This document shows, one piece after another, positions 20,301 to 59,301 of a stretch of 64,000 bases of DNA. Source of the stretch: an uncultured delta proteobacterium (GTDB taxonomy: Bacteria; Desulfobacterota; Syntrophorhabdia; Syntrophorhabdales; WCHB1-27); contig CAVQYC010000003.1 of assembly GCA_963717985.1 (NCBI GenBank), forward strand, positions 34,314-98,313, in the 5' to 3' direction. Both the position numbers and the translations under genes were made by a program. The notes beneath the pieces were generated by a model. The model saw only the letters and a list, made by a program, of their open reading frames with translations. It was not told the origin of the DNA and did not search any database. How positions within the stretch are numbered: the first letter of the stretch is position 1; every line of letters begins with the position of its first letter.

Positions 20301-22151
20301 CTATACAGGTTTAAGAATCTCGGGGTTCACGTCGTACACGGTTGACGGTCTTCCCCCCGTGGTCTTTTTCACTGGTTCGCTGATGATATGCCTGGAAGCG
20401 AGAACCTTTAAGGCCGTTTCCAGGCGGCCTATCGTCCTGAACCGGCGATTCTCTTTGATTGCGTCGCTTTGCTTGAACGTCGGTTCCCCTTTTGCCACAA
20501 TCCACTTGAGCACGGCCTTAGCGTCATTACTGGCCGGGTCCTCGTCCATGAGGTCGAACGCGGCCCGCGCATGACAGATAAGAAGCTCGCACAGGTCAAG
20601 GGCGCGCTCCATGGTCGCTCGATTTATGGTAGAGTTCGACGTGCCATGTTCCACAACATAAAACAGCCCGCCGATACGAAGCGCCGCCCCCGGCAATTTG
20701 CTTGTCCAGTCCTGAATGCTGAAATACTCCCCGTCCGCTCCCTGCTTGCTTTCTATGTACTGGCTGAAACGCTGCCATGCCTTCAAGGCATCGGCGGTTA
20801 AAGTCAATATTCTCGGCTGCTCTTGTCCGTGCTCGTCGTAAATGGGGTCTATTGCCAACAGCACCATGATTCCGGCGCGATATCCCGCCCTGACTGATTC
20901 CGGGATAGTACCCCGGCGCATTACGTCCCTGGTCCCTATGGTGCTTGCGGGTAGGCAGTAGAGGAAGCGGGCAAGCGTCCCGTTTCCGCGAAAGTGTTTC
21001 TTGCGGCCTTCCGCGAGGTCAACTATTATGTCCGTCTGCACGGCAAGACCGAAAGATAGCGCCGGTTTATTCAGCGTGACGGTACGCCCCTGTCGATCAA
21101 CCCGGACCGGCGAGCCTGCGTGTCCTTGTAGGAAGACATTGAGGTTTGCCCGGCCATTGGTGTAAAGCCCTGCCATCACCTCGAATATCCCGCCCTCATC
21201 GGATAAGAGCGCCATGCGCTCGCTATTTTCCGCCATGAGAGCTTGCAACCGCTCCGGGGTAACGTCGTCAGTCCATACTCTCGGGGGCCTTATCTCGTCG
21301 GGGGTTTCATCCTCAATCCGTGTGATGCCCCGTATTGCGCTCTCCCTCTCATCGTCCGGCGTGTCTGGCTTCGCGGCCCTTGCCTTCAACTGGTCGATCC
21401 GCTTAAGATTGATGTCTCGCCGGTGGTTGACTTCCTTGATCTTCGGTTTAAGTTCCTCGGCCTGGTCGTTTTCCCACAAGGTCAACGGTTCGGCCATGGC
21501 GTTCTTGACGGCTGTCTTCCTGTTGCCGGGGTCCAAAGCGGTAACAGTCCAAAGGGCCAAGGGTTCCCTGTAATCATCGGCGTAAGGTGAAACCTCGAAG
21601 CGTTTTTGAAGACATGCCGCAACCGTGGACAGAGCAAACATGACGGCCATCCCCGACGGTGTCTGTGTGGCCTGCGTGACGGCCTGGCAATAATCCCCCA
21701 GGTAGCCGGGCAAGAGGGTACTTGGTAGGTCCGGCGTCTCTATGTCGCCGAAAAGGAGAGGTTCGGGCCATTCCTCATCCGTGTTTACCCTGCCCGCGCT
21801 CTGCTTCGGCCCTTCCATGAAGGCTGCAAGGCTATCATCTCCACTTATGATCTTCCGCGCTTCGTTCCATGTGTGCCCCTGACAGCTATCGTGGAAACAT
21901 TTGTAAAGAAGCTGGCCGCCCGCCGTTTGAAGGATTCCCGCGCCTTTGTGCCCCTGGTCAAAAAGGCAACCATCCGAAAGGACGTAGAGCGTGCCTGCCG
22001 TGATCGTCTTGACCGTGTATGCTCTCCCATAGTGATCGAGGTACGCAGCCACGTCGAGACGGGCCTTGCCGTCGTCCGCCTGTTTCGGCGGCTCCTGCTC
22101 GGGGAACATGGCCCGTGCCCGCTCCATCGCCTCTGCGCTCATGGTGCTCAT
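20301..22151 (-). CDS. DUF3987 (YfjI-like) replicative helicase-like protein with an N-terminal Cys/His zinc module
   Basis: 616 aa. The N-terminus has ..CLFDQGHKGAG..YKCFHDSCQGHTW.., and the central/C-terminal region matches the DUF3987 architecture seen next to primases in integrative elements (recall). Its start overlaps the primase stop by 4 nt. Confidence 0.6.
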   Translation of the reverse strand: MSTMSAEAMERARAMFPEQEPPKQADDGKARLDVAAYLDHYGRAYTVKTITAGTLYVLSDGCLFDQGHKGAGILQTAGGQLLYKCFHDSCQGHTWNEARKIISGDDSLAAFMEGPKQSAGRVNTDEEWPEPLLFGDIETPDLPSTLLPGYLGDYCQAVTQATQTPSGMAVMFALSTVAACLQKRFEVSPYADDYREPLALWTVTALDPGNRKTAVKNAMAEPLTLWENDQAEELKPKIKEVNHRRDINLKRIDQLKARAAKPDTPDDERESAIRGITRIEDETPDEIRPPRVWTDDVTPERLQALMAENSERMALLSDEGGIFEVMAGLYTNGRANLNVFLQGHAGSPVRVDRQGRTVTLNKPALSFGLAVQTDIIVDLAEGRKKHFRGNGTLARFLYCLPASTIGTRDVMRRGTIPESVRAGYRAGIMVLLAIDPIYDEHGQEQPRILTLTADALKAWQRFSQYIESKQGADGEYFSIQDWTSKLPGAALRIGGLFYVVEHGTSNSTINRATMERALDLCELLICHARAAFDLMDEDPASNDAKAVLKWIVAKGEPTFKQSDAIKENRRFRTIGRLETALKVLASRHIISEPVKKTTGGRPSTVYDVNPEILKPV

Positions 22152-22885
22152 TGATTGTCCCCCATGTCATCGATGTATGCCATTCTATGCGGCCTGGCCT
22201 CTCTGCCCGGTCCTTCCGACACAGGGTCACCCTTGCGGGCAGTCGTGCCGTAGAGCTTCCATATCCGCGCCGGATTAAAGCAGGTCGTGTCAACGTGTAC
22301 CTTGTCGGTATTGAACCGCGCCGCAAGCATTTCGAGGGTGCCCTTGATGAATTGTCGGGTCTCGTCGTTCGCGGGCATATCGGGAAGCCTGAAAAGAAGG
22401 TGCCCCCCGTTCCCGCTCATGGCCCGGATAGGTGAAGGAAAGGCAAGCTCCTGCGCTACCCATTCAGCTACCGCGTCTCGAAGCACAAGGGCCTCGGCAA
22501 GCTCCGCATTACTCGAAGAGATGCCCGAAGGACGGACCGGGTCGAGGTCAACGGGCAACCATCGGTAGGCAAGGACGTTATTGTCGCTTGTGGTTAGGTC
22601 TGAAGGCCGAAGCCGGTTGAAGGCCCGCCCGATAAGGCGAGGGTCGATCACCTGTAGCGTGAAGTAAATGCCGCCGTGGGTGGCCTTGTCCGTAAGCTGT
22701 ACGATCTTACGGAAGGCGTCGAAAGCGTCGAAGTAGCCGGTCACCACGCCCCTGACGTACTCATTACCCCAGGCGGGAGACTTACCGGACGCGCCCAGGA
22801 TTCGCACCTCGACCACTTCACCCGGCTTGACGAAGGTCTCAAAGACGGGCCGGTCAAAGAGGGTAAGGCGGGTCTCACTCGTCAT
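22148..22885 (-). CDS. archaeo-eukaryotic-type primase (prim-pol) domain protein
   Basis: Three AEP motifs in order: WLPVDLDP (DxD), SGNGGHLLFRL (sGxGxH) and VHVDTTCFNPARIWKLYGT (hD..R..G). Confidence 0.65.
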   Translation of the reverse strand: MTSETRLTLFDRPVFETFVKPGEVVEVRILGASGKSPAWGNEYVRGVVTGYFDAFDAFRKIVQLTDKATHGGIYFTLQVIDPRLIGRAFNRLRPSDLTTSDNNVLAYRWLPVDLDPVRPSGISSSNAELAEALVLRDAVAEWVAQELAFPSPIRAMSGNGGHLLFRLPDMPANDETRQFIKGTLEMLAARFNTDKVHVDTTCFNPARIWKLYGTTARKGDPVSEGPGREARPHRMAYIDDMGDNQ

Positions 22886-23066
22886 GGCTTGCCTCTCCGC
22901 CCCGATTGCAGAGCGCGTCTATGTCGGCCTCACGCCATGCGGTCGTGCGCGGGGAAAGTTTAATACCCCTCGGGAATATGCCTTTTCTGATACCCGCCCA
23001 CCACGTACTTTTTGACACGGGAAACCGCTCCAGAACTTGCGGCAAGCGTAAAAAACGTTTGTGCAT
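22875..23066 (-). CDS. alpA: AlpA-family excisionase/transcriptional regulator
   Basis: 63 aa. FLRLPQVLERFPVSKSTWWAGIRKGIFPRGIKLSPRTTAWREADIDAL is the typical AlpA HTH. Confidence 0.8.
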   Translation of the reverse strand: MHKRFLRLPQVLERFPVSKSTWWAGIRKGIFPRGIKLSPRTTAWREADIDALCNRGGEASHDE

Positions 23067-23194
23067 TAGACACCTCGCTGTCGTGAAATAAAAAATCCCA
23101 TGATGAACTTTCGCGCATTGCGTTGTTCTTCATGGGACTAATCTAATTTATTGAGGGAGATTTGTAGATTGACGATTAAGGAAAACGCTAAACG

Positions 23195-23923
23195 TCAAAC
23201 AGGGATGCTGGAAAGACTTATGGCCGGTTCTTCGGAGCACCAGCTTTCTACTTCAATAGACGCGGCCCTTATCATTTTCTCGGCTTGTTGATAGGCCCGT
23301 CTGACTCGTTTATCTGAAGCATCCAGTTCTTCGTTGTAAGCCGGATTGTTTTCCTTACGAGTGAATGTTTTTCCCGTCTTCCTGCGAGCTATTTCGAGTA
23401 AAGACAATCCTTCTTTTTTGTGAAGATCGTAAATGTCCCAGGGGTCATACTCGCGTTTCTTCCTGGTCGTTCTGCCCTCCGATATCTCGGGGTTCAGCAC
23501 CTTATCCCGGAACATATCTTTTTTTGCTTTGTTGACGATCTCGATGAAACAGTCTTTCAACTCTTCGTCGTTTTTGTTCAAGTCGATTGAGAGCCGCATA
23601 TACATCCGGTTCTTATGCCATGTCCAGAGACTATCAGGTAGGCTAATCGGTATGGGTCCATTTTCCCCCCATTCCCCTTGGCCTTCTTTCATCAAAACAA
23701 CAGCTTCTCGTTCAAAGAGCTTCAAGAGTGCTTCTCGGATAGGTGCGTCCGGACGCATGGTGAGGTAATGAAGCTCCAAGGGGCTCCATGGAAAACGTGG
23801 CTTTTTGGATAGCCTTTTCTCGGAGTCAGACTCTTTGTAATACTCCTCCAGAGCCTTGCGATATTCAAGGTATTTCGGGCATCGGCGTATTGCCTCAAGT
23901 CTGTCTCGTGTGGTCATTCTCAT
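23195..23923 (-). CDS. hypothetical protein (243 aa) with a C-terminal HTH-like segment; island cargo next to the integrase
   Basis: Start set at ATG 23923 (MRMTTRD) after GAGGAGAGG. It has lower G+C than its neighbours. ..DPWDIYDLHKKEGLSLLEIARRKTG..RVRRAYQQAEKMI looks like a sigma-r4/LuxR-type HTH. I recognise no other motif. Confidence 0.5.
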   Translation of the reverse strand: MRMTTRDRLEAIRRCPKYLEYRKALEEYYKESDSEKRLSKKPRFPWSPLELHYLTMRPDAPIREALLKLFEREAVVLMKEGQGEWGENGPIPISLPDSLWTWHKNRMYMRLSIDLNKNDEELKDCFIEIVNKAKKDMFRDKVLNPEISEGRTTRKKREYDPWDIYDLHKKEGLSLLEIARRKTGKTFTRKENNPAYNEELDASDKRVRRAYQQAEKMIRAASIEVESWCSEEPAISLSSIPV

Positions 23924-24048
23924 TTTCGTTTCACCTCTCCTCGTTCCTGAAAGAACAGGCAGACGCCGGAGATTGCGTTTTTCGGCCCGTCGGCCTATCT
24001 CCCTTTTCAACCTTTCTGACCTTTTGTACCCTATACAGGGTTTCGCTT

Positions 24049-25278
24049 TTACCCCTTCCTCTTCAGCGGCAACACCTGCGCTCCCTGCTTCAGCCCGTCG
24101 AGATAGTCGGCCCAGGTTTGCATCATCTCCTTGCGGCCTGCAAGGTGTGAAGTCCGATTGTAGGCTCTCCCGTTCGGGTCTCTCACGGCATGGGCAAGCT
24201 GATGCTCGATATAATCAGGCCGCACTTGTAGCACTTCGTCAAGGATCGTGCGGGCCATTGCGCGGAAGCCGTGCCCCGTCATGGTTTCCTTATCGAAGCC
24301 CATGCTCCTGAGCGCCGCATTCACCGCGTTGTTGCTCATCGGCCTTGCGAAGGAGCGTTCCGAAGGGAAGACGTACTTGCTCGCTCCCGTAAGCGCCTTC
24401 AGTTCCGTCAATATCGCTATGGCCTGAGTGCAGAGAGGCACGATATGAGGTTGCTTCATCTTCATCTTGTGCGCCGGTATGTTCCAGGCCCCTTCATCAA
24501 GGTCGATCTCCGCCCATTCTGCTTGTCTAAGCTCCCCAGGACGCACAAAGAACATGGGGGCAAGGCGTAAGGCGCATTTGACCACAAAGCCGCCCTGATA
24601 GCCGTCTATGGCCCTTAAGAGGGGGGCAACCTCTTTGGGGTCGGTGATTGCCGCGTGGTGCCTTTCTGGCGGTTGAGGCAGGGCACCTCTCAGGTCGCCG
24701 GAGCAATCGCGTTCACATCTGCCCGTGGCGACCGCATACCTGAAAACCTGCCCGGCGACAGTCCTTAGCTTGTGTGCCAACTCAAGAGCGCCCCTGCCCT
24801 CCACCCGACGAAGGGCGGTCAACAACTCAATCGCTTTGATCTCGTTGATCGGCCGCGTTCCCATCCACGGGAACAGGTTTTGCTTGAGCCTTGCCATGAC
24901 AGCATTGGTGTAGCTCGGCGACCATGCGGGAGAGAATTTCGCGTACCATTCACGGGCGATCACCTCGAAGGTCTCGGTTTCGGCGGTCCCTGTCTGCTTC
25001 ATGGCCTTGCGGACGCTGGCCGGATCGATACCGTGGGCGATCTGCTTCCGGGCTTCCTCACGCTTCTCTCGCGCTTCGGCAAGGGAGATTTCAGGATATG
25101 GGCCGAAGCTGATTCTCTTGCGCTTCTCGTGAATCAGGTATTGGAAATGCCAGTATTTGCCGCCCTTCACTGACACAAGAAGGTAGAGACCGCGCCCGTC
25201 GGATAGCTTGTAGTCTTTCTTCCGGGGCCTGGCGTTTTTGGCCTGAACATCGGATAGCTGGATAACCCGCTTAGGCAT
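24049..25278 (-). CDS. int: tyrosine recombinase, P4-type integrase (DUF4102 N-terminal arm-binding domain)
   Basis: N-terminus ..KDYKLSDGRGLYLLVSVKGGKYWHFQY..ISFGPYPEISLAEAREKR... The catalytic region has ..HGFRAMARTIL.. and ..HQLAHAVRDPNGRAYNRTSHL... The 5' end faces the tRNA 3' end. Confidence 0.9.
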   Translation of the reverse strand: MPKRVIQLSDVQAKNARPRKKDYKLSDGRGLYLLVSVKGGKYWHFQYLIHEKRKRISFGPYPEISLAEAREKREEARKQIAHGIDPASVRKAMKQTGTAETETFEVIAREWYAKFSPAWSPSYTNAVMARLKQNLFPWMGTRPINEIKAIELLTALRRVEGRGALELAHKLRTVAGQVFRYAVATGRCERDCSGDLRGALPQPPERHHAAITDPKEVAPLLRAIDGYQGGFVVKCALRLAPMFFVRPGELRQAEWAEIDLDEGAWNIPAHKMKMKQPHIVPLCTQAIAILTELKALTGASKYVFPSERSFARPMSNNAVNAALRSMGFDKETMTGHGFRAMARTILDEVLQVRPDYIEHQLAHAVRDPNGRAYNRTSHLAGRKEMMQTWADYLDGLKQGAQVLPLKRKG

Positions 25279-25451
25279 TGGCTTTTCTCCTTTTTTGAGG
25301 CATATGATGTTTTTTTGAGGCATACGCACCCCAAATATGACTCAAAAACTTCCGGATTCCAATAGATAGTATAACACCTCTTCGGACTATCAACAATAAA
25401 AAACCCGCTATTTCTAACGGGTTTCGGACTACATGGGATTGTGTCGGATTA

Positions 25452-25472
25452 TAAAAAAGCTCCCCGGGCAGG
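25452..25472. repeat. proximal att repeat (attL) overlapping the tRNA-Asn 3' end
   Basis: aaaaaagctccccgggcagga. See the 18263-18280 feature for its partner. Confidence 0.6.
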
Positions 25473-25532
25473 ACTCGAACCTGCAACCTACTGGTTAACA
25501 GCCAGCCGCTACTGCCGATTGAGCTACCGGGG
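25459..25532 (-). tRNA. tRNA-Asn (anticodon GUU), CCA not encoded
   Basis: Folded by hand into a 74-nt cloverleaf. Acceptor TCCCCGG/CCGGGGA; anticodon stem GCTGG/CCAGT with loop CT-GTT-AA; T arm GCAGG-TTCGAGT-CCTGC; discriminator G. The D stem has only 3 bp. Confidence 0.9.
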
Positions 25533-25573
25533 AAACGATTACAGTAAACACGAAAAACGGCAGAATGTCAATA

Positions 25574-29127: not shown

Positions 29128-29446
29128 GGTCCCCCCTTCAGTAGAACCTGAAGGGACAGCACGAGGGTCGAATTTTCTAAGTCACGGGTGACAAGTTATG
29201 CCCCAACCTCCGAAAAGTCAGAAAACTATTTATATTGAGCTGCTGCTTCCCCGTTACTGCCCCTAAAGAATAGCCCCGCGATGCCGTGTAAACAGTAAGT
29301 CTTGAACCTCTCAAGATAAGTGGGCGCCTTTTTCTTGCTTCACGCGTCTCGCACTCAGACGAGCATGCAGTCTGCAATAAGAGAAGGCTCCCCGCAAAGA
29401 GGTGTTGGCTCGAAGTTTACCATTTATCACGCACACCGCAGGGAAT

Positions 29447-29704
29447 CTATACGTTTTCAACCTTTCTCAAGAGCCTCAGCGTGTTGTCTTCGACTTTCTC
29501 GAACCGCTCCTTCATATCCATGTAGTTATCGGCAACCCTCATCATTGCCATGATAACCGTATTCAGCGTGTTTACGATCCCAAATTCCTGCGCCACCCCC
29601 GCTATTTCCTGGTCGACGAACCGGGCGACTTTTCTGATCTTCTCCTCATCATCACCAACGAAAGTAAATGACTGATTGAGTATAGTGACTTCCACTCTGT
29701 GCAA
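29447..29704 (-). CDS. zapA: cell division protein ZapA
   Basis: 85 aa. VEVTILNQSFTFVGDDEEKIRKVARFVDQEI.. is a typical ZapA. Confidence 0.8.
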   Translation of the reverse strand: MHRVEVTILNQSFTFVGDDEEKIRKVARFVDQEIAGVAQEFGIVNTLNTVIMAMMRVADNYMDMKERFEKVEDNTLRLLRKVENV

Positions 29705-31293: not shown

Positions 31294-33105
31294 TTATTCC
31301 TCGGCTTTGGTGAGATCCTCAAACTTAATATCCAGCCCCAGGACCGCCACTATCTCTCCGGTCTCGTCATGTATCGGGCCTGAAACGGTAATACAGAGGG
31401 CGCCGGTTATTCTTGACGTGTAGAGACCCGTCACCGATATCCTGCCGGTCGAGAGCGGCTGGATGAACCAATCCCTGTCCGAGAAATCTTCATGCAGGTC
31501 TATCTTGGCGTACTTTGCCCTGTCCACCGCCTGGGTGATGTTCCTGGTGACCTTCACTCCTTCCGCGTTGACCACATAAGCAAACTGTATGTACGGGTAC
31601 TCGGCCACGAGTCCCTTGAGCACCCCTTCCTGCCGCTCGGGCTCCATGCTCTTTATATCATCCTCTTCGATATAGCGCTCGATCAGATGGGCGGCCATAT
31701 CGTGGGCACTCTTCTTCAGCATATCGAATTCGGACGGGAAGACTTCGGGCATGTACCGGCGGACCATATGTTCCATCTCCTCGTCAGACATGGCGGTCAC
31801 CCTGCCCTCCTCATACTGCTTCAGAATCCGCTTGTTTATCCTTGCGACACCCGGATGGGTTTTTTCAATTGCGTCCTCTCCGATCAGGGCAAAATGGGAA
31901 TTGATCCAGTGGGCTATGCCTGCAAGGCCTGATTTGTCGGTGAGATTTATCGTTATCGGCCTGTTGAGTATTCTCTTTGTGTCGAAGGCGGTATATATCT
32001 CCTCGTTTTTTGCGAGCCCGTCGATGTGGACGCCGGCGGAGGTCGCATTGAAATCCGAGCCGACAAACGGTTGATTTCGGGGTATGTGGAGACCCACCTC
32101 CTTCTCGAAATAATTCCTCATCTCCGTAATCACCTTGGTATCGATCCCGTTGTCATCGCCGACGAGCGAGATATACTCCATAATAAGCGCCTCTATGGGG
32201 GTGTTCCCTGTTCGTTCCCCCATGCCCAGAAGGGCGCCGTTTACGAACGTGCACCCGTAGAGCCATGCACTCACCGCGCCGACCACTCCCCTGTAGAAAT
32301 CGTTATGTCCGTGCCATTCGAGGCAATCGGAAGGTACACCGGCATCATCGATCATGGCCCTGATGATCTTTCCCACGGAGCGCGGCAAGGCGGCCCCAGG
32401 ATAAGTAATACCGAGACCGAGGGTGTCGCACAACCGTATCTTTATGGGTATCTTCGCCTCTTCCGACAGGGACATGAGGGCCTGTGCAAAGGGCACACAA
32501 AACCCGTAAATATCGGCCCTCGTCACGTCTTCAAAATGACACCGCGGCATGATGCCGGCATCGAGAGCCGCCTCAACGACTTTCAAATAACCCTTGAATA
32601 CCTCGGCCCTCGTTTTGTGAAACTTGTAGAATATGTGATAATCGGAAATGCTCGTGAGCATACCTGTCTCTTTCAGGCCGAAATCCTTCACAAGCTGCAG
32701 ATCTTCCTTGCTGGCCCGAATCCAACCCGTAATTTCCGGATACCGATATCCTTTTTCGAGGCATTTCGTCACCGCTTCCTTGTCCTTCTCGGTGTAGAGA
32801 AAAAACTCGGATTGACGTATCACCCCGTTCGGCCCGCTCAACCGGTGGAGAAGATTGAAAATGTCCTCGATCTGTTTTACAGAGAAAGGGGGCCTCGCTT
32901 GCTGGCCGTCCCTGAAGGTCGTGTCCGTGATGAAGATCTCGTCAGGGGGGTCTATTGACTCGATCTTGTGGTCGAAACTGACCCTTACCATATCGGTATA
33001 GGGGAACACGTTCCGGAAAAGCTCGGGCTCTTTCACATCGATGAGCGGGAACCTGGTGCTCTTTACCGTATTCTTGAAGATAAAACCTTTCCGCTTTTTC
33101 GCCAA
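31294..33105 (-). CDS. HMGL-family acyl-CoA:2-oxoacid condensing enzyme (homocitrate/isopropylmalate/Re-citrate-synthase-like) fused to a C-terminal Cache/PDC-like domain
   Basis: Contains ITDTTFRDGQQA, ..EWHGHNDF.. and GERTGN (DRE-TIM metallolyase motifs). The last ~120 aa read ..DRDWFIQPLSTGRISVTGLYTSRITGALCITVSGPIHDETGEIVAVLGLDIKF, the Cache_1-type signature. TTG start at 33105. Confidence 0.7.
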   Translation of the reverse strand: MAKKRKGFIFKNTVKSTRFPLIDVKEPELFRNVFPYTDMVRVSFDHKIESIDPPDEIFITDTTFRDGQQARPPFSVKQIEDIFNLLHRLSGPNGVIRQSEFFLYTEKDKEAVTKCLEKGYRYPEITGWIRASKEDLQLVKDFGLKETGMLTSISDYHIFYKFHKTRAEVFKGYLKVVEAALDAGIMPRCHFEDVTRADIYGFCVPFAQALMSLSEEAKIPIKIRLCDTLGLGITYPGAALPRSVGKIIRAMIDDAGVPSDCLEWHGHNDFYRGVVGAVSAWLYGCTFVNGALLGMGERTGNTPIEALIMEYISLVGDDNGIDTKVITEMRNYFEKEVGLHIPRNQPFVGSDFNATSAGVHIDGLAKNEEIYTAFDTKRILNRPITINLTDKSGLAGIAHWINSHFALIGEDAIEKTHPGVARINKRILKQYEEGRVTAMSDEEMEHMVRRYMPEVFPSEFDMLKKSAHDMAAHLIERYIEEDDIKSMEPERQEGVLKGLVAEYPYIQFAYVVNAEGVKVTRNITQAVDRAKYAKIDLHEDFSDRDWFIQPLSTGRISVTGLYTSRITGALCITVSGPIHDETGEIVAVLGLDIKFEDLTKAEE

Positions 33106-33193: not shown

Positions 33194-34954
33194 CTATTCC
33201 TTCGTCACCCTCAGCCTCAGGTCGCTGAGCTGCCTCGGCTTAACCGGTGCCGGAGCGCCGGACAGCAGACAGGTGCCCTTCTGCGTCTTTGGGAACGGGA
33301 TCACGTCCCTTATGCTGTCGAGGCCCAGGAGCATCATCAGGATGCGGTCGATCCCGAAAGCAAAGCCCCCGTGGGGAGGTGCGCCCATCTCCAACGCTTC
33401 GAGGAGAAAACCGAACTGCTCGACGGCCTCTTCTTCCTTGAAGCCGAGGAGCTTGAACATCTCCATCTGCTCGTCTTTCCGGTGTATCCTGATGCTGCCC
33501 CCGCCAATCTCCGCCCCGTTCAGCACGAGGTCGTACGCCTTTGCCTGCATCGATTCGTAGTCGCCGCCGAATTCCTGAATGCTGCCTTTCGGCGACGTAA
33601 ACGGGTGATGGCGGGCAACATACCTTTTCTCTTCCGCGCTGTATTCAAAGAGCGGGAAATTGACGACCCACAGGAAAGAGTCGTCGCCTTTCCTCACGAG
33701 GTCGTACTTCTCTCCGAGATAGAGGCGAAACCTCCCCATGATATCGTTTACTTTAGCGCGCGCATCGGCCATAATGAAAAGCACGTCGCCGTCCGCGAGG
33801 CCGCATCGCGCGTCTATGGCCGCGGTCTCCTCTTCCTTCAGGTACTTCACTATGGGCGACACGAGCTTCCCCGCATCCTTGCGCATCCAGATGAGGCCGC
33901 CCGCGCCGAGGGTCTTCGCCGTGTCGACGGCTGTGTCGAGGTCTTTCCGGGAAAGGGACCTGGACTTCAGCGCAATGCCCTTTATGGCCCCTCCATTGCC
34001 CACAACGTTCTTGAACACGCCAAATTCAGTCGACCGGAACAACGGGGTCAGCTCTTCCATGGGCAGATCGAACCTGAGGTCGGGCTTATCCGTCCCATAA
34101 CGCTCCATCGCCTCGGAATAATCCATCCGTCTGAAAGGACCGGCAAGGGGCGTTTTCTTTATCGATTCGTAAAGCACAGCCATGGCGCCCTCAACTAACG
34201 CGATGACGTCTTCCACATCCACAAAGCTCATCTCCAGATCGAGCTGGGTGAACTCCGGCTGCCGGTCCGCCCTCAGGTCTTCATCCCTGAAGCATCGCGC
34301 CAACTGGAAGTATTTTTCAAAACCCGCTACCATCAGTATCTGCTTGAAGAGCTGGGGTGATTGCGGAAGCGCGTAAAACTGGCCCTGATTCAACCTGCTC
34401 GGGACGATGAAATCGCGAGCCCCCTCAGGTGTGCTCTTGGTGAGAAAAGGCGTCTCGATCTCGAAAAAGCCCTGCGACGACAGGTAGCTCCGCACTGCCA
34501 TCCCCGCCGCGCTCCGCAGGATAAACGTCTCCCGCACCTTCGGGCGGCGCATGTCCAGGTACCGATACTTCAATCTGAGGAACTCATTCGGCTCCTCTTC
34601 GGTATCGAGCTCGTCGACCTGGAAAGGCAGAGGCTTGCAGGTGTTGAGTACCGTAAGGGTGGAAACGAGCACCTCGATTCCTCCCGTGGGGATATTGGGG
34701 TTCTCCGTGCCTTCGGGCCTCGGCGCTACCGTGCCTTCGATGCGGATCACATACTCCTGCTTGATCTCATGCGCTTCCTTATGGGCGACAGGGGCTATCT
34801 CGGGAGAGAAGACCACCTGCACAATGCCGCTCACATCCCTCAGATCGAGGAAGATGAGACCGCCGTGATCGCGTCTTCTGAACACCCATCCCGCCAGCTC
34901 TACGCTCATTCCCACATCGACTACCGAGAGCGTTCCACAGTACCGGTTTCTCAA
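33194..34954 (-). CDS. aspS: aspartate--tRNA ligase
   Basis: ..RYCGTLSVVDVGMSVELAGWVFRRRDHGGLIFLDLRD.. and class II motifs (..FRDEDLRADRQPEFTQLD.., ..GGGSIRIH..). I chose the TTG start at 34954, 6 nt after GGAGGAGG, and discarded the 78-aa ORF-track extension. 586 aa. Confidence 0.9.
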   Translation of the reverse strand: MRNRYCGTLSVVDVGMSVELAGWVFRRRDHGGLIFLDLRDVSGIVQVVFSPEIAPVAHKEAHEIKQEYVIRIEGTVAPRPEGTENPNIPTGGIEVLVSTLTVLNTCKPLPFQVDELDTEEEPNEFLRLKYRYLDMRRPKVRETFILRSAAGMAVRSYLSSQGFFEIETPFLTKSTPEGARDFIVPSRLNQGQFYALPQSPQLFKQILMVAGFEKYFQLARCFRDEDLRADRQPEFTQLDLEMSFVDVEDVIALVEGAMAVLYESIKKTPLAGPFRRMDYSEAMERYGTDKPDLRFDLPMEELTPLFRSTEFGVFKNVVGNGGAIKGIALKSRSLSRKDLDTAVDTAKTLGAGGLIWMRKDAGKLVSPIVKYLKEEETAAIDARCGLADGDVLFIMADARAKVNDIMGRFRLYLGEKYDLVRKGDDSFLWVVNFPLFEYSAEEKRYVARHHPFTSPKGSIQEFGGDYESMQAKAYDLVLNGAEIGGGSIRIHRKDEQMEMFKLLGFKEEEAVEQFGFLLEALEMGAPPHGGFAFGIDRILMMLLGLDSIRDVIPFPKTQKGTCLLSGAPAPVKPRQLSDLRLRVTKE

Positions 34955-44235: not shown

Positions 44236-44424
44236 TCAGTCTTTCTTCGCATTCTCTTTGAAAAACGTCGTCAGAAATTCGCCGTCCTTCGGTGAAAGGT
44301 CGAACTTGAAGACGGCTTCCTCGACCAGGCGGTACATTGGCCGTGCCGGTTGTTCCTGCAAACCTGCCGAGATCCACTTGACCGCCCTTCTCAGGTCTTC
44401 CCCTTCGGGCAATGGATACGTCAT
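44236..44424 (-). CDS. small hypothetical protein (62 aa)
   Basis: ATG 44424 follows a GAAGGGGGG RBS. It has no recognisable motif and is convergent with dapL. Confidence 0.35.
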   Translation of the reverse strand: MTYPLPEGEDLRRAVKWISAGLQEQPARPMYRLVEEAVFKFDLSPKDGEFLTTFFKENAKKD

Positions 44425-44538: not shown

Positions 44539-44567
44539 TTGATTAGTTTCTTTGTCAAGTATATAAT
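44539..44567 (+). promoter_or_regulatory. sigma70-type promoter for the rhodanese-MoeB gene
   Basis: TTGATT-17 nt-TATAAT, about 40 nt upstream of the GTG start. Confidence 0.4.
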
Positions 44568-44605
44568 ATGGCATATTCAGGCAGGTTTATGTCAGGAGGG
44601 CTCAC

Positions 44606-45784
44606 GTGCCAGGCTATAAAGAACTGCTGGAACAGGCACGCGCTGAAATTGACGAGATAAGCGTCGAGCACGCGCATGAGATGCTCCGGGAAGGCGACGA
44701 AAAGGTGCGGCTCGTCGATATCAGGAGCCGCGGACATATGGCCCTCGGCTACATCAAGGGCGCCGCGCTCATCCCCGCTGATGAGCTTGAAATGACCGTT
44801 CACCATCTGCTTCCCGACAAGAGCAAGCCCATGCTTATTTATTGCGAGTCCGGTCACCGTTCCGTCTTCACCGCCCTTACCCTCAAAGAGATGGGCTATA
44901 CGCACGTGTCGGCCATGGCCGGCGGCATTACGGCATGGAGGGAGGCGGGCTACGAGATCGAAAACGAGACACTCCTCACGCAGGACCAGCTCACCCGTTA
45001 TAGCAGGCAGATGCTCCTTCCCGAGGTGGGTGTGGAAGGTCAATTCAAGCTCCTGAACGCGAGTGTGCTGCTCGTCGGAGCAGGAGGTCTCGGCTCGTCG
45101 GCTGCGCTCTACCTCGCAGCCGCCGGAGTGGGTACCATCGGCATAGCCGATTTCGACCATGTGGAAAAGAGCAACCTCAACCGGCAGGTTATCCACGCAA
45201 GCGGCAATGCAGGGAAACCGAAGACGGAATCTGCGAAGGAAGGGTTAAGCCGCATCAACCCGGACATCAGGGTCGTTACCTTTTACGAGCGGATGACGCC
45301 GGAAAATATAGCCGATATTCTCAAGGACTTCGATATTCTCCTCGACGGCTCCGACAATTTTCAGACCAAGTACCTCCTCAACGACGCCGCATTCTTTGCG
45401 GGAAAGCCCTATATCTTTGGCGGGGCCGTGAGGACGGAGGGCCAGGCCGCGGTCTTTTCCCCCAAGGAGGGTGGGCCATGCCTGCGCTGCCTGCTGCCTC
45501 AGCCGCCCCCGCAGGAACTGGCGCCGACCTGAAGCGAGGTCGGGGTCCTGGGCGTCGTCCCCGGACAGATCGGCCTCGTGCAGGCCGCAGAAGCCCTTAA
45601 GCTCATACTGAAAAAAGGAGAACCCCTCATAGGCAGGTTCCTCATTTACAACGCCCTTGAAGCCGACTTCAGGACAATTACCGTTGGGAAAAACCCAAAT
45701 TGTCCGTTGTGCGGGCCTGAGCCGACCATCACCACCTTGAGCGACTGTTACGAGGGCACCGCCACGGTCTGCCATACGCCCTGA
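44606..45784 (+). CDS. rhodanese-MoeB/ThiF (E1-like adenylyltransferase) fusion with an in-frame UGA at 45530-45532 (candidate selenocysteine)
   Basis: GTG start 5 nt after AGGAGGG. Rhodanese active-site loop CESGHRS. Nucleotide-binding loop LLVGAGGLGS. Zinc motifs CLRC and CPLC. Both ORF-track pieces are in the same frame, separated only by the TGA. Confidence 0.7.
45539..45566 (+). promoter_or_regulatory. SECIS-like hairpin downstream of the in-frame UGA
   Basis: GU(C)GGGG...CCCC(G)GAC. Pairs are g39-c66, t40-a65, c41-g63 and g42-45 with c59-62, with g64 bulged and a 13-nt G-rich apical loop. The stem starts 7 nt after the UGA. Confidence 0.4.
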
Positions 45785-45834: not shown

Positions 45835-45863
45835 TTGACAGTTAACACACCCAAGACTATAAT
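45835..45863 (+). promoter_or_regulatory. orphan consensus sigma70 promoter
   Basis: TTGACA-17 nt-TATAAT, a perfect match at both hexamers, in the convergent intergenic region. Confidence 0.4.
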
Positions 45864-46004
45864 TTCCGACTAGAGAATGGTCGGGAGGTGACTTTGATGG
45901 CCGATAAACAGATTTAACCCCACCATCCCCCCCTGCCACTCTCTCCCGAACGTGCCCGATTTAAGGCCAGGGCAGCCGTAGCCAAGACGCATCAGGCATG
46001 ATAG

Positions 46005-47249
46005 TCACTCTCCGGCGCGCAATTTCCGTCGCTTCTCATTGGCCCGGGCAAGCAGTTGTTCAAGGGCGAGCCGCTCCTCCGGGGCGCATTGCGCAACTTG
46101 GACGGTTATAGAGATTGGACAATTTCTTGCGTTGTCATTCTTGAAGCCGGCGACGCCAAGTTGGAGTTGAGCTGTTTCCGCTTCCGCCGCACCACCGGCA
46201 AGAACCGCGAATTCGACTCCTCCTATGCGCCCGATGACGCCCTTCTCCTGAAAAATCTCCTGAAGCATGCGTCCGACTTTGCGTATGGCCGTATCGCCCT
46301 GCTTTTGGCCCAGTGTGTCGTTGAGCAGCTTTATGTCATCCAGCTTGACGAGAAAGAGCGTGCAGGGCTCCTTCCTCTTGGATGCCACCTTCAACCGCTC
46401 CCAGGAAAGCTCGAAGAACCCTTTCCTGTTGTACAGACCTGTAAGCTCATCCGTGATCAAGGCGGTCCGTAGTCTTTCCTCAAAGAACTTTCGTTCGGTG
46501 ATGTCTTCCACCTGGCCGACCAAGTATAATGGGTAGCCCCGCGAATCACGCACTACCGAAACAGAGAGCAAACCCCATGTGATGTACCCATCCCTGTGGC
46601 AGTAACGTTTTTCAATTTGATAATAGGGAATCTCATCCTCGATGAGTTTCTTCAAATGTTCGAGGTCGTTCTCAAGGTCGTCAGGATAAGTTATGTCCTG
46701 GAATGTTTTCGCGAGGAGCTCCTCCTCGGAATAGCCGAGAATATTGCAGAGCGACTGGTTTACCTTCAGCCAACGACCGTCCAGACCGACCAGGCACATG
46801 CCAATCGCGGAGGCTTCGAAGGCGCCCCTGAAGCGGCTCTCGCTCTCCTTCAACGCTTCCTCCATGCGCCGCAGCTCGGTGATGTCCATCGCAGAAATCA
46901 TGCTCCTCTTAGTGTGAGGGATCATGCCCACTCTAACAAGCACTTGCATGAGGGTGCCGTCCCTGCGTACTACGCTGCATTCAAATTCTTCGGGTGCGCT
47001 CGGAGAATGGGCTGTCCGATTGCGCTGGTAGCTCTCCAGCCTCTCAATGTCTTCGGGTGGGGTCCAATTTCTCCAACTCATCTTTCCTTCTATTTCTTCC
47101 AGAGACCACCCGACAGCCCGGCTGAATCGCGCATTGGCCAGACTGATGGTGCCGTCTTCTTCTACGATTGCCAGACCGGAACCGGAGTAATCAAAAATTG
47201 CGTGGAAGGTGTCCGCCGACAGTATTGGGGGGTTTTCTCTATCAGTCAT
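46005..47249 (-). CDS. PAS-PAS-GGDEF protein with a degenerate active site (GGVEF)
   Basis: Two PAS blocks (..FHAIFDYSGSGLAIVEEDG.., ..SRFRGAFEASAIGMCLVGLDG..). GGDEF domain ..DELTGLYNRKGF..GRIGGVEFAVL... Start at ATG 47249. Confidence 0.85.
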   Translation of the reverse strand: MTDRENPPILSADTFHAIFDYSGSGLAIVEEDGTISLANARFSRAVGWSLEEIEGKMSWRNWTPPEDIERLESYQRNRTAHSPSAPEEFECSVVRRDGTLMQVLVRVGMIPHTKRSMISAMDITELRRMEEALKESESRFRGAFEASAIGMCLVGLDGRWLKVNQSLCNILGYSEEELLAKTFQDITYPDDLENDLEHLKKLIEDEIPYYQIEKRYCHRDGYITWGLLSVSVVRDSRGYPLYLVGQVEDITERKFFEERLRTALITDELTGLYNRKGFFELSWERLKVASKRKEPCTLFLVKLDDIKLLNDTLGQKQGDTAIRKVGRMLQEIFQEKGVIGRIGGVEFAVLAGGAAEAETAQLQLGVAGFKNDNARNCPISITVQVAQCAPEERLALEQLLARANEKRRKLRAGE

Positions 47250-47621
47250 TGGTAGTTCCCTTGAGACTAGAATTTGTAGCATTTTGTAAGCACCGATATT
47301 ATCGGCTAAAATGCTCTAAAGCTAAGTTCTCCGTATACGAGCCGCCTGCCCTCGCGGAACCCGGCTATGAGGTGACATCCCGGTAGTAGCGGGGTCCTTC
47401 CTGTAGTAGAGCAACGATCTTAAGACAAAACGATACAACATTGCAGGGGCCATTCAAGCAGCGGCGGTGCTGGCCCAACCGGGCGCAAGACAGTCGGCCC
47501 GCATCTTCGCTTTCCAGCCTTCATGCGGAAGACAGGCGCATACATATGTGGTTGCTATTTGGACAGAATTGGGGATAATAACAATGAGATATCTGTGACC
47601 AAATCCACAGGGAGGTATTCG

Positions 47622-57001: not shown

Positions 57002-57492
57002 TACGAAAAGCTGCATGCCTCGCCTTCGGCGTCTTCCTGATGATCTTCGAATCCTCCCTTTCCTCCTTTTTGCCTCTGGAGCTTGCGAAGCCCGACCTCG
57101 GGGTGCCTTTCATCATCTATGGCACCTTTTTCCTTTCGCCTGCCGAGGGTCTCCTCGCGGCGGTCCTCTTCGGCTTCACACAGGAAGTCCTTTCCAACAG
57201 CCCGGCCGGCGCCCTGGTTTTTATCAACGTCGCCCTCCTCCTCTCCTGCATTTTTCTCAAAAACAGGCTATACATCGAATCGAGATATACCTTTTCCCTT
57301 GTCTGCGCCGCTTCAGTTCTCGGGGAGTCTCTCATTTTTCTGGCCCTTTCCCTCCTCTCCAAGGGAGAGACAAAGAACATTTATAACGTCCTGGTTTTTT
57401 CAATCCCCGACGCAATTATGACGGCCTTTGTATCGCTTTTCATGTTCCGCTTCTTCGAACAAGTTAAAATCCGCTATATGAGCAGGGTATAG
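56998..57492 (+). CDS. mreD: rod shape-determining protein MreD
   Basis: 164-aa polytopic membrane protein that overlaps the mreC stop (ATGA). Confidence 0.75.
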   Translation: MIRKAACLAFGVFLMIFESSLSSFLPLELAKPDLGVPFIIYGTFFLSPAEGLLAAVLFGFTQEVLSNSPAGALVFINVALLLSCIFLKNRLYIESRYTFSLVCAASVLGESLIFLALSLLSKGETKNIYNVLVFSIPDAIMTAFVSLFMFRFFEQVKIRYMSRV

Positions 57493-59301
57493 TGAAGGCG
57501 CGTGAGCCGGAGTCCGCAACCCGCGAGAAGAAGTACAAATGGTGCGAACGGATACTTGTTCTCACCTTGATCGTCCTTTTCATGCGTCTTTTTGACCTCC
57601 AGATATTGAGAGGTGAAGAGATGCTAAGACTCTCCGAGCAAAACCGGGTGCGCATCAAGAAAATCCTGGCGCCCCGAGGGACTATCTTCGACAGAAGCCG
57701 GAAAGATACTGGCGAACACGCGTCCCTCCTTCAACCTTTATCTCATCCCGGAGGACATCAAAGACTTCAGCCAGACCGTCGACGGCCTCGTGCAGCTGCT
57801 CGACATCGACCGGGAAGAGATTATGGAAAAGCTGAAGGACGCGAGAGATTTCCCCTCGTCCTTCGCCGTGAAGATAGCGTCGGATATGTCCATGGACCAG
57901 GTCGCCAAAGTGGAAGCCAACAAGTTTTATCTGCCGGGGGTCGCCATACAGATCGAGCCTAAGCGCAACTACCCCTACAACACGATGCTTTCCCATGCGC
58001 TCGGCTACGTCTCGGAGGTCAGCAGCGAGGAGATGAAGACACCCGACTACAAGAACTATTCCATGGGCGATACCATGGGCAAGTTCGGCTTGGAACGGAT
58101 GTACGAAAAGTATCTCAGGGGCGTTGACGGGGAAAAAAGGGTAGAGGTGGACGCCTCCGGCAAAGAGGTGAGGGTCCTCGACACGATAGAACCCGTGTCG
58201 GGCAATAGCCTCTATCTCAACATTGACATGGAGGTGCAGACAACGGTCGAGCAAGCGCTGGAAGGAAAGAAGGGGGGCGCCGTCATAGCAGACCCCCGCA
58301 CCGGCGGTGTCCTCGCCCTTGTCAGCCACCCTGCCTTCGATCCCAACCAGCTCACCTCGGGGTCCCGGGAATACTGGAAGACTATCGCCACCGATCCGTC
58401 CCACCCGCTTCAGAACAGGGTCACCCAGGGGCGGTTCCCACCCGGATCGACCTTCAAGCCTCTCGTGGCGCTCGCGGCGCTGGAAAAGGGCGCCATCAAT
58501 GAGAATACGACCTTTGGCTGCGGCGGGCACTTCGCCTTCGGCGGACATGTGTTCAAGTGCTGGCAGAAGAGAGGACACGGCTCGGTTTCGCTTCACAAGG
58601 GTATCGTCCAGTCGTGCGACGTCTTTTTCTATAATACGGGCTTGAAGGTGGGAGTGGACAGCATCCATGAAATGGCCGAGCTCATCGGTATCACCAAGCC
58701 CACCGGCGTGGATCTGCCCGGCGAGAAGAGCGGGCTTGTCCCGTCGACTGAATGGAAAAAGCGGACGTACGGTGAGAAATGGTATGAGGGCGAGACAGTC
58801 TCGGTGGCGATAGGCCAGGGCGCCGTCTGGCTCACTCCGATAGGGCTCATGCAGCTCGCCTCCTTCGTGGGCAACGAAGGCGTCACTTTCAAGCCCCAGA
58901 TAGTCAACAGAATAGTCTCTCCCGAGGGGAAAGTCATCAAAAAGTTCGAGCCGGTGATGAGCGCCAATGTGAAACTCGACAAGCACAACATCACTCTGGT
59001 CAAGGAGGCGATGAAAGGCGTGGTGAACGAGCCCGGAGGCACCGCGTACAGCAATGCCCGCCTCGATAACGTGAGCATAAGCGGAAAGACGGGCTCTGCG
59101 CAGTCAGGCTCGGGAGGGGCCGACCACGCGTGGTTTATCGCCTTTGCGCCCAGTGACGCGCCGTCGGTCGCGATGGGTATACTCGTGGAGCACGGTTTGC
59201 ACGGGGCATCCGCAGCAGCTCCTATCGCGAAGGCGGTAGCTCAGACCCTGTTCAAAGAACCTGCTAAAGAAATAAAATCGGCGGCCCTGAATGCACATTG
59301 A
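57492..59301 (+). CDS. mrdA: penicillin-binding protein 2 (elongasome transpeptidase); 1-nt frameshift near 57698 in this sequence
   Basis: Frame 0 reads ..LRGEEMLRLSEQNRVRIKKILAPRGTIFDRS and then nonsense. Frame +1 reads GKILANTRPSFNLYLIPEDIKDF... with STFK (PGSTFKP), SCD (..VQSCDVFF..) and KTG (SGKTGSA). There is an extra c in the cc run at 57698-57699. Confidence 0.9.

Follow-up and report, generated by a model that had tools for sequence, protein, structure and literature searches.

Does the in-frame UGA within a rhodanese–ThiF/MoeB gene of an uncultured delta proteobacterium code for selenocysteine (Sec), or does it end the protein? The gene lies in a stretch of 64,000 nucleotides, below called the window, comprising positions 34,314 to 98,313 (forward strand) of contig CAVQYC010000003.1 in assembly GCA_963717985.1, and all coordinates given here are those of the window. 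Region 44606-45784 is a single gene coding for an E1-like sulfur-carrier-protein adenylyltransferase/sulfurtransferase, with an N-terminal rhodanese and a C-terminal ThiF/MoeB domain. Its frame, from the GTG at 44606 to the TGA at 45782-45784, is open except for one internal stop, the TGA at 45530-45532; the open reading frames (ORFs) 44606-45532 and 45533-45784 are one frame, interrupted solely by this codon. An earlier description of the window made from its letters only, called here the sequence-only reading, had joined the two pieces in the same way and had proposed a selenoprotein. The probability that the enzyme does carry Sec at UGA 45530-45532, in place of the catalytic cysteine of the crossover loop, is put at about 85%. 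The elements of the gene on which the argument rests are the following:

44606..45784, + strand: complete coding sequence of the rhodanese–ThiF/MoeB predicted selenoprotein, 392 residues, Sec at residue 309
45530..45532, + strand: in-frame UGA, predicted Sec codon, residue 309, in the crossover loop; a conserved TGA, with Cys in homologues
45782..45784, + strand: true stop codon, also TGA
44669..44944, + strand: rhodanese domain, residues 22-113 (Pfam PF00581, E 2.8e-15)
44843-44845, + strand: TGC codon of Cys80 in the rhodanese active-site loop C80-ESGHRS
44999..45706, + strand: ThiF/MoeB adenylation domain, residues 132-367 (Pfam PF00899, E 1.5e-80)
45479-45490 and 45701-45712, + strand: the two CxxC pairs of the Zn site, C292/C295 and C366/C369, respectively

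In a phmmer search of the PDB the read-through protein hits structures of MoeB, ThiF, and Uba4 with E-values between 1e-50 and 1e-58. The TGA column is aligned there with Cys187 of E. coli MoeB (1jw9_B; ..ENALT-C-VEAGV..), Cys184 of E. coli ThiF (1zud/1zfn; ..EPERN-C-RTAGV..), and Cys202 of Chaetomium Uba4, the lysine seen at this place in 6yuc and 6z6s being the engineered C202K exchange. The sequence-only reading, which had aligned the UGA with the conserved MoeB/ThiF cysteine, was right on this point, while the N-terminal rhodanese that it took for unusual is the arrangement of a curated family, NCBIfam NF006444 / PRK08762. The protein reaches 476.8 bits with this model, whose curated cut-off is 449, residues 5-381 covering model positions 4-379 of 387. 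The score with the MoeZ model NF005902 is 358.8, far under the cut-off of 647, which places the protein outside the MoeZ/MOCS3/Uba4 group, and the models of E. coli-type MoeB (TIGR02355; 220.6 vs 376.55) and of ThiF (TIGR02356; 245.6 vs 275.25) also score below their cut-offs. NF006444 is named "molybdopterin-synthase adenylyltransferase MoeB"; its members share the domain order of the window protein, which matches the model over its full length, yet the name bears no selenoprotein flag, and Cys occupies the column in most members (85/120 of the best matches). The adenylation domain contains GAGGLG plus the conserved Arg, Asp, and Lys, the motif columns being invariant or nearly so, and the rhodanese active-site column is Cys in 114 of 121 aligned sequences (120 homologues and the window).

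The same TGA is found far beyond the window. With the read-through protein as query, 28 of the 120 best homologues terminate within one residue of the TGA column (305-312 residues, 61-98% identity), about 27 of these protein clusters ending exactly there, and the DNA of 12 such loci, when fetched, had TGA at the column in every case (12/12), followed in frame by SEVGVLGVVPGQIGL...C(P/A)LCG. A search with a codon-degenerate DNA pattern (T-stop-S-E-V-G-V-L-G) detected the gene on 73 metagenome contigs, which originate from peat, wetland, sediment, and sludge; all carry a homologue with the in-frame TGA, behind which the frame goes on for another 69-124 codons if the contig is long enough. The 12 loci and the 73 contigs were pooled and duplicates removed, which left 62 distinct 72-nucleotide segments including that of the window; the other 61 come from independent assemblies (ENA, JGI, NCBI, and Logan) that derive from different samples. 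The 61 codons 3' of the TGA are free of stops in 61/61 sequences, and the mean pairwise differences at codon positions 1, 2, and 3 after the TGA (0.24, 0.15, and 0.56, respectively) are the same as in the 61 codons upstream, a coding pattern showing that translation runs through the UGA across the whole clade. A scan of genome contigs with the 308-residue protein returned only two loci, one of which is a Sec form in a metagenome-assembled genome (MAG) labelled "Deltaproteobacteria bacterium". The window itself holds no other convincing in-frame TGA candidate, the rest being ordinary stops or lying in non-coding frames. Elsewhere UGA is an ordinary stop in this genome: the rhodanese–ThiF gene itself terminates with TGA, as do other genes of the window.

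The homologue alignment that the sequence-only reading had called for does show alternation of Cys and TGA. In the same 120 homologues, which also form the tree, the column is Cys in 85, a stop in 28, Ala in four, Gly in one, and Ser in one, and one frameshifted call is unscorable. The alternation reaches into a single 90%-identity cluster, where a 394-residue homologue (P0124, locus L087) with TGC at the column falls together with the nearest Sec form. When a neighbour-joining tree was computed from the region that precedes the column, the 28 Sec forms all fell in one clade of 35, in which two Cys members, one Gly member, and a four-member Ala subclade are nested; the 85 homologues outside this clade have Cys (83), Ser (1), or Gly (1). 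Such a pattern is consistent with a single gain of Sec and several later replacements.

A Sec-bearing MoeB is not new, since it has been a predicted selenoprotein family since 2005, and the window gene adds a member to it. The family was described with 11 sequences in the Sargasso Sea study of Zhang, Fomenko & Gladyshev 2005 (PMC1088965), 19 Sec against 2,262 Cys sequences of MoeB were counted in GOS in 2008 (PMC2398784), and reviews of 2022 and 2026 still list MoeB among selenoproteins, on bioinformatic prediction only and with MBT7809913.1 as the representative. The traits of the family of Zhang et al. 2005 that were looked for are all present in the window gene, namely the ThiF/MoeB domain, TGA at the published Sec column, Cys homologues, and a coding sequence downstream. 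Sargasso MoeB has Sec at the identical column (..GGPC(Y/L)RCL..PPP..(A/V)P(S/T)-U-(A/S)(V/E)(A/V)GVLGV(L/V)PG..), and BLASTP against AACY01009056 sets window residue 309 opposite the published U, with 47% identity over 177 residues of the adenylation domain. Like the window clade, it has many Cys homologues, a CCUGGG-N6/7-CCCGGG hairpin at an equal distance from the UGA, and, again at an equal distance, a second hairpin GGCCUG..CAGGCC. The two differ in the place of the rhodanese, C-terminal in Sargasso MoeB (the MoeZ/MOCS3 order, CYKGQRS) and N-terminal in the window (CESGHRS), although BLASTP pairs the one domain with the other, and in their sources, surface-ocean bacteria for the former and anaerobes of peat, wetland, sediment, and sludge (Syntrophorhabdia relatives) for the window clade. 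MoeB selenoproteins are thereby extended to soil, peat, and sludge anaerobes with an N-terminal rhodanese (PRK08762), forms which earlier surveys may already count. To our knowledge, no member of the MoeB selenoprotein family has been studied biochemically.

The region 3' of the UGA can fold into a stem-loop resembling a bacterial selenocysteine insertion sequence (SECIS), whose parts, together with a second hairpin, are:

45534..45579, + strand: SECIS-like stem-loop (minimum free energy fold and comparative data)
45534-45543 / 45570-45579, + strand: clade-specific lower stem
45545-45552 / 45560-45566, + strand: conserved upper stem; GUCC(U)GGG / CCC(C)GGAC in the window, whose minimum free energy fold pairs 45545-48/45563-66 and 45550-52/45559-61 around the loop CGUCGU
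45553-45559, + strand: apical loop CGUCGUC, which holds the conserved G
45572..45586, + strand: second small hairpin, GGCCUG-GUN-CAGGCC in most orthologues, 95% of cells paired

The upper stem, with the consensus GUCC(U)GGG / CCC(N)GGRC, starts 12 nucleotides after the UGA, is paired in 93% of cells over the 62 sequences, and carries an apical loop of 6-7 nucleotides with a nearly invariant G. A small apical loop with a G is the feature stressed for bacterial SECIS elements (PMC1088965), and the hairpin agrees with that description in both its position downstream of the UGA and its loop. The sequence-only reading had also drawn a GC hairpin here and had suggested looking for its co-variation; the hairpin exists, but the register proposed for it, GUCGGGG / CCCCGGAC from 45539, is not the conserved one, and its conserved pairing comes without significant covariation, as described below. 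The second hairpin is weakened in the window (CUC for CUG), where its bases join the lower stem instead; the Gly codon in it has C or U at the third position in 62/62 sequences. When the 27-nucleotide core was compared with synonymous recodings sampled according to the codon usage of these genes, 62/62 sequences folded more stably than the recodings (mean z -1.74, range -0.6 to -3.9). The third codon positions of the stem are biased relative to the gene background (GTC 82% vs 34%, CTG 89% vs 29%, CCC 82% vs 34%, and GGR 92% vs 39%), while those of the loop and flanks are free to vary in the same 62 sequences. GUG in A1 columns 19-21 occurs with GGC in columns 37-39 in 4/4 GGC sequences, a co-occurrence that probably reflects no more than one or two events.

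Selenium use is supported for the Syntrophorhabdaceae/Syntrophorhabdales at the level of the lineage, not for this genome itself. The aspartyl-tRNA synthetase of the window is 81% identical to that of Syntrophorhabdaceae bacterium PtaU1.Bin034 and assigns the window to this lineage. In a tblastn search with E. coli SelA, SelB, and SelD of about 550 kb, including the window and related loci, one selD was found (L059, 226-1260), coding for a Cys form (GGGCASK). It is convergent with a Sec-form orthologue of the window gene at a distance of about 260 nucleotides (longer context in L093, 7947-14171), the sole such adjacency among about 90 loci, and genes for a 255-residue rhodanese protein, an Rrf2 regulator, and a PALP (cysteine-synthase-like) protein lie nearby in L093. 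Homologues of this SelD include proteins from Syntrophorhabdus, Syntrophorhabdaceae, and Syntrophorhabdales MAGs, and a preprint names Syntrophorhabdus aromaticivorans among the species with a selenocysteine-dependent (SAO) gene cassette. As a separate observation, many of the SelD homologues (P0265, P0312, and P0317 among them) are 311-317 residues long, with a coverage of no more than 90-92% of the query; possibly gene callers have truncated SelD selenoproteins here at an N-terminal Sec codon.

Several results weigh against the assignment of Sec. The decoding genes selA, selB, selC, and selD were not found in the 64-kb window, nor selA, selB, or tRNA-Sec in the about 550 kb of related loci; a tRNA-Sec search of the window and 34 loci gave none, and selA, selB, and tRNA-Sec are likewise absent from the context of the L059 selD in L093. 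The base-pair covariation of the hairpin is not significant in the 62 sequences, being indistinguishable from that of shuffles although 93.9% of cells are paired, and RNAalifold gives their alignment a weak consensus of -3.3 kcal/mol with zero compensatory pairs; the lack of significance is explained by the location of most paired bases at first or second codon positions. The window hairpin taken by itself is no better than its dinucleotide shuffles (z -1.6, -1.1, and 0.0 for 81, 63, and 27 nucleotides, respectively), so that the weight of the hairpin comes solely from the comparative data, and a search of 45480-45680 against Rfam at E<=10 yielded chance matches only, with no SECIS family. Moreover, the hairpin is retained in close non-Sec relatives with TGC, TGC, GGA, and AGT at the column (L087, L088, L089, and L090) and in a TGT paralogue (L011, 5607-6866). 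It may be a fossil SECIS in forms that lost Sec recently, or the peptide GVLGVVPGQ may dictate much of the structure, and the hairpin alone therefore does not discriminate the Sec forms. The Sec column is occupied by Ala, Gly, or Ser in some homologues, and E. coli MoeB has never been seen to form a thioester with MoaD (PMC7911844), from which it follows that the residue may be dispensable for adenylation. Finally, the window has no credible ThiS/MoaD-like ORF ending in GG and no gene for a sulfur carrier.

Among the other explanations, the one that survives best is that read-through of the UGA inserts a standard amino acid (Cys, Trp, or Arg, by a near-cognate tRNA) or gives a mixture of truncated and full-length protein. 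It draws on the failure to find Sec machinery in the window and the related loci, and on the presence of the hairpin in Cys forms, which deprives it of value as proof of SelB recruitment. Nevertheless, it is hard to explain why a leaky stop should have been kept at the catalytic Cys column in 62 sequences with TGC and TGT one mutation away, unless UGA provides something that Cys cannot, and the column is identical to that of a recognised selenoprotein family, selD is present in the lineage and beside one orthologue, and the synonymous sites of the stem are constrained. Read-through with a standard amino acid is accordingly regarded as unlikely.

Very unlikely is the view that the UGA is a genuine stop, with a 308-residue rhodanese–ThiF fragment made alone or assembling with a separately translated piece of about 68-83 residues. 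Gene callers do annotate ORFs of 308 and 46-81 residues, and the window offers a GTG at 45578 for a restart, but no restart codon is conserved, the position of the first ATG, GTG, or TTG ranging from codon 3 to codon 26 behind the TGA. Strong purifying selection acts on the 15 residues (SEVGVLGVVPGQIGL) that separate the TGA from the GTG at 45578, the fragment would be devoid of the second CxxC of the Zn site, a pair that does not vary among full-length homologues, and the homologues with Cys at the column are single polypeptides. The chance is negligible that the TGA arose through faulty sequencing or assembly, or through a recent nonsense mutation that made a pseudogene, for although the window has at least one apparent frameshift (PBP2, split at 57492-59301), the reading is refuted in practice by the same TGA in 61 other distinct, independent sequences (61-98% protein identity) with the downstream frame intact and conserved.

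If the UGA codes for Sec, the stem-loop 3' of it, with its conserved upper stem at 45545-45566, would be the bacterial SECIS for SelB and Sec-tRNA(Sec), as the comparative data suggest. The host is a relative of Syntrophorhabdaceae (Desulfobacterota), a lineage with selD. By analogy with the characterised E1-like enzymes, a ThiS/MoaD-type carrier, encoded outside the window, would be adenylated at its C-terminal glycine by the ThiF domain, and Sec309 would then attack the acyl-adenylate to give a selenoester or acyl-selenosulfide intermediate. ThiF forms an acyl-disulfide at Cys184. In Uba4 a thioester at Cys202 is attacked by the rhodanese persulfide (PMC7527816, PMC7911844); the Sec309 intermediate would be the counterpart of one or the other. 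The persulfide of Cys80 in the rhodanese domain would attack this intermediate and free the carrier thiocarboxylate. As Sec is a stronger nucleophile and a better leaving group, both steps could be sped up. The chemical role of residue 309 is the least certain step of this scheme.

Genes near the homologues code for ThiS and Prok-JAB (L088-L090), ThiI-like, ThiE-like, and JAB proteins (L009), HcyBio (L007), NifS/NifU (L011), and PALP and Rrf2 (L093), and this context suggests carrier-dependent incorporation of sulfur more than molybdopterin synthesis in particular. Four homologues (P0016, P0018, P0020, and P0023) have Ala both at the rhodanese active-site Cys (CESGHRS changed to AAS..) and at the crossover Cys/Sec column. 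This double replacement hints at a functional coupling of the two residues, but it probably arose only once, and a subclade with Gly in the rhodanese (P0009, P0012, and P0093), in which the column reads U, C, or G, makes the coupling non-strict. On the strength of the paired Ala replacement and of HcyBio, PALP, Rrf2, ThiI-like, Prok-JAB, and once selD genes near orthologues, one may imagine that the Sec-containing E1 enzymes with an N-terminal rhodanese in anaerobic relatives of Desulfobacterota are not just quicker Cys-type enzymes but form a distinct relay with an obligatory Sec309-Se-S-Cys80 selenosulfide or selenoester, possibly feeding a carrier-dependent cysteine/homocysteine or selenium-trafficking route; this is a doubtful proposal.

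The window protein shares with Uba4/MOCS3/MoeZ the combination of an adenylation domain with a rhodanese and differs from them in the reversed domain order and in Sec replacing Cys; in those enzymes the crossover-loop Cys forms a thioester with the carrier, from which the thiocarboxylate is made by the rhodanese persulfide. The adenylation fold, the two CxxC pairs (Zn site), and the Cys187/Cys184 column recur in E. coli MoeB and ThiF, but these are single-domain proteins without a rhodanese. A covalent intermediate at the crossover residue is established for Uba4, and the natural series of Sec, Cys, Ala, Gly, and Ser at this position of the E1 enzymes gives a handle on such an intermediate in bacterial sulfur-carrier activation.

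In the databases the window gene has the form of a 308-residue fragment and a small orphan ORF, and gene callers split its orthologues likewise into a 305-312-residue "adenylyltransferase/sulfurtransferase" and an orphan ORF of 46-81 residues (loci L003-L013). At least 28 clusters at 90% identity are thus cut short at the TGA in public databases and should be merged into single selenoproteins.

Upstream of the gene two expression signals were recognised:

44594..44599, + strand: Shine-Dalgarno sequence AGGAGG, 6 nucleotides 5' of the GTG start, read from the sequence
44539..44567, + strand: promoter-like TTGATT-17-TATAAT, 10/12 matches in a consensus scan, a pattern match only

An ORF of 62 codons (44236-44424, - strand) with no Pfam match lies between the gene of a class I/II aminotransferase and the rhodanese–ThiF gene, and the same small ORF stands beside the aminotransferase gene in L004, L005, and L007. 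Just 3' of the rhodanese–ThiF gene there is a perfect sigma-70 consensus TTGACA-17-TATAAT (45835-45863, + strand), followed by GGGAGG (45883-45888) and a 6-codon mini-ORF from the ATG at 45897 to the TAA at 45917 (+ strand). A transcript from this promoter would run antisense into the 3' end of a PAS-GGDEF gene (46005-47282, - strand); region 45835-45917 has no Rfam match and is not conserved in the related loci compared.

Elsewhere in the window, the gene of penicillin-binding protein 2 (PBP2) is represented by ORFs 57492-57962 and 57790-59301 (+ strand), which overlap in different frames in a frameshift-like manner, in agreement with the sequence-only reading, which had noted frameshift errors outside the rhodanese–ThiF gene. 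The ORF 31294-33105 (- strand, 603 residues) combines HMGL-like and Cache/PDC sensor domains, perhaps because faulty assembly has joined two genes. A tRNA-Asn (25459-25533, - strand), the sole tRNA in the window, a phage-type integrase (24049-25329), and a DUF3987 protein (20301-22151) lie in 20301-25533, which is probably an integrated mobile element, and a 6S RNA (RF00013, 85.6 bits) is encoded at 29269-29447 (- strand).

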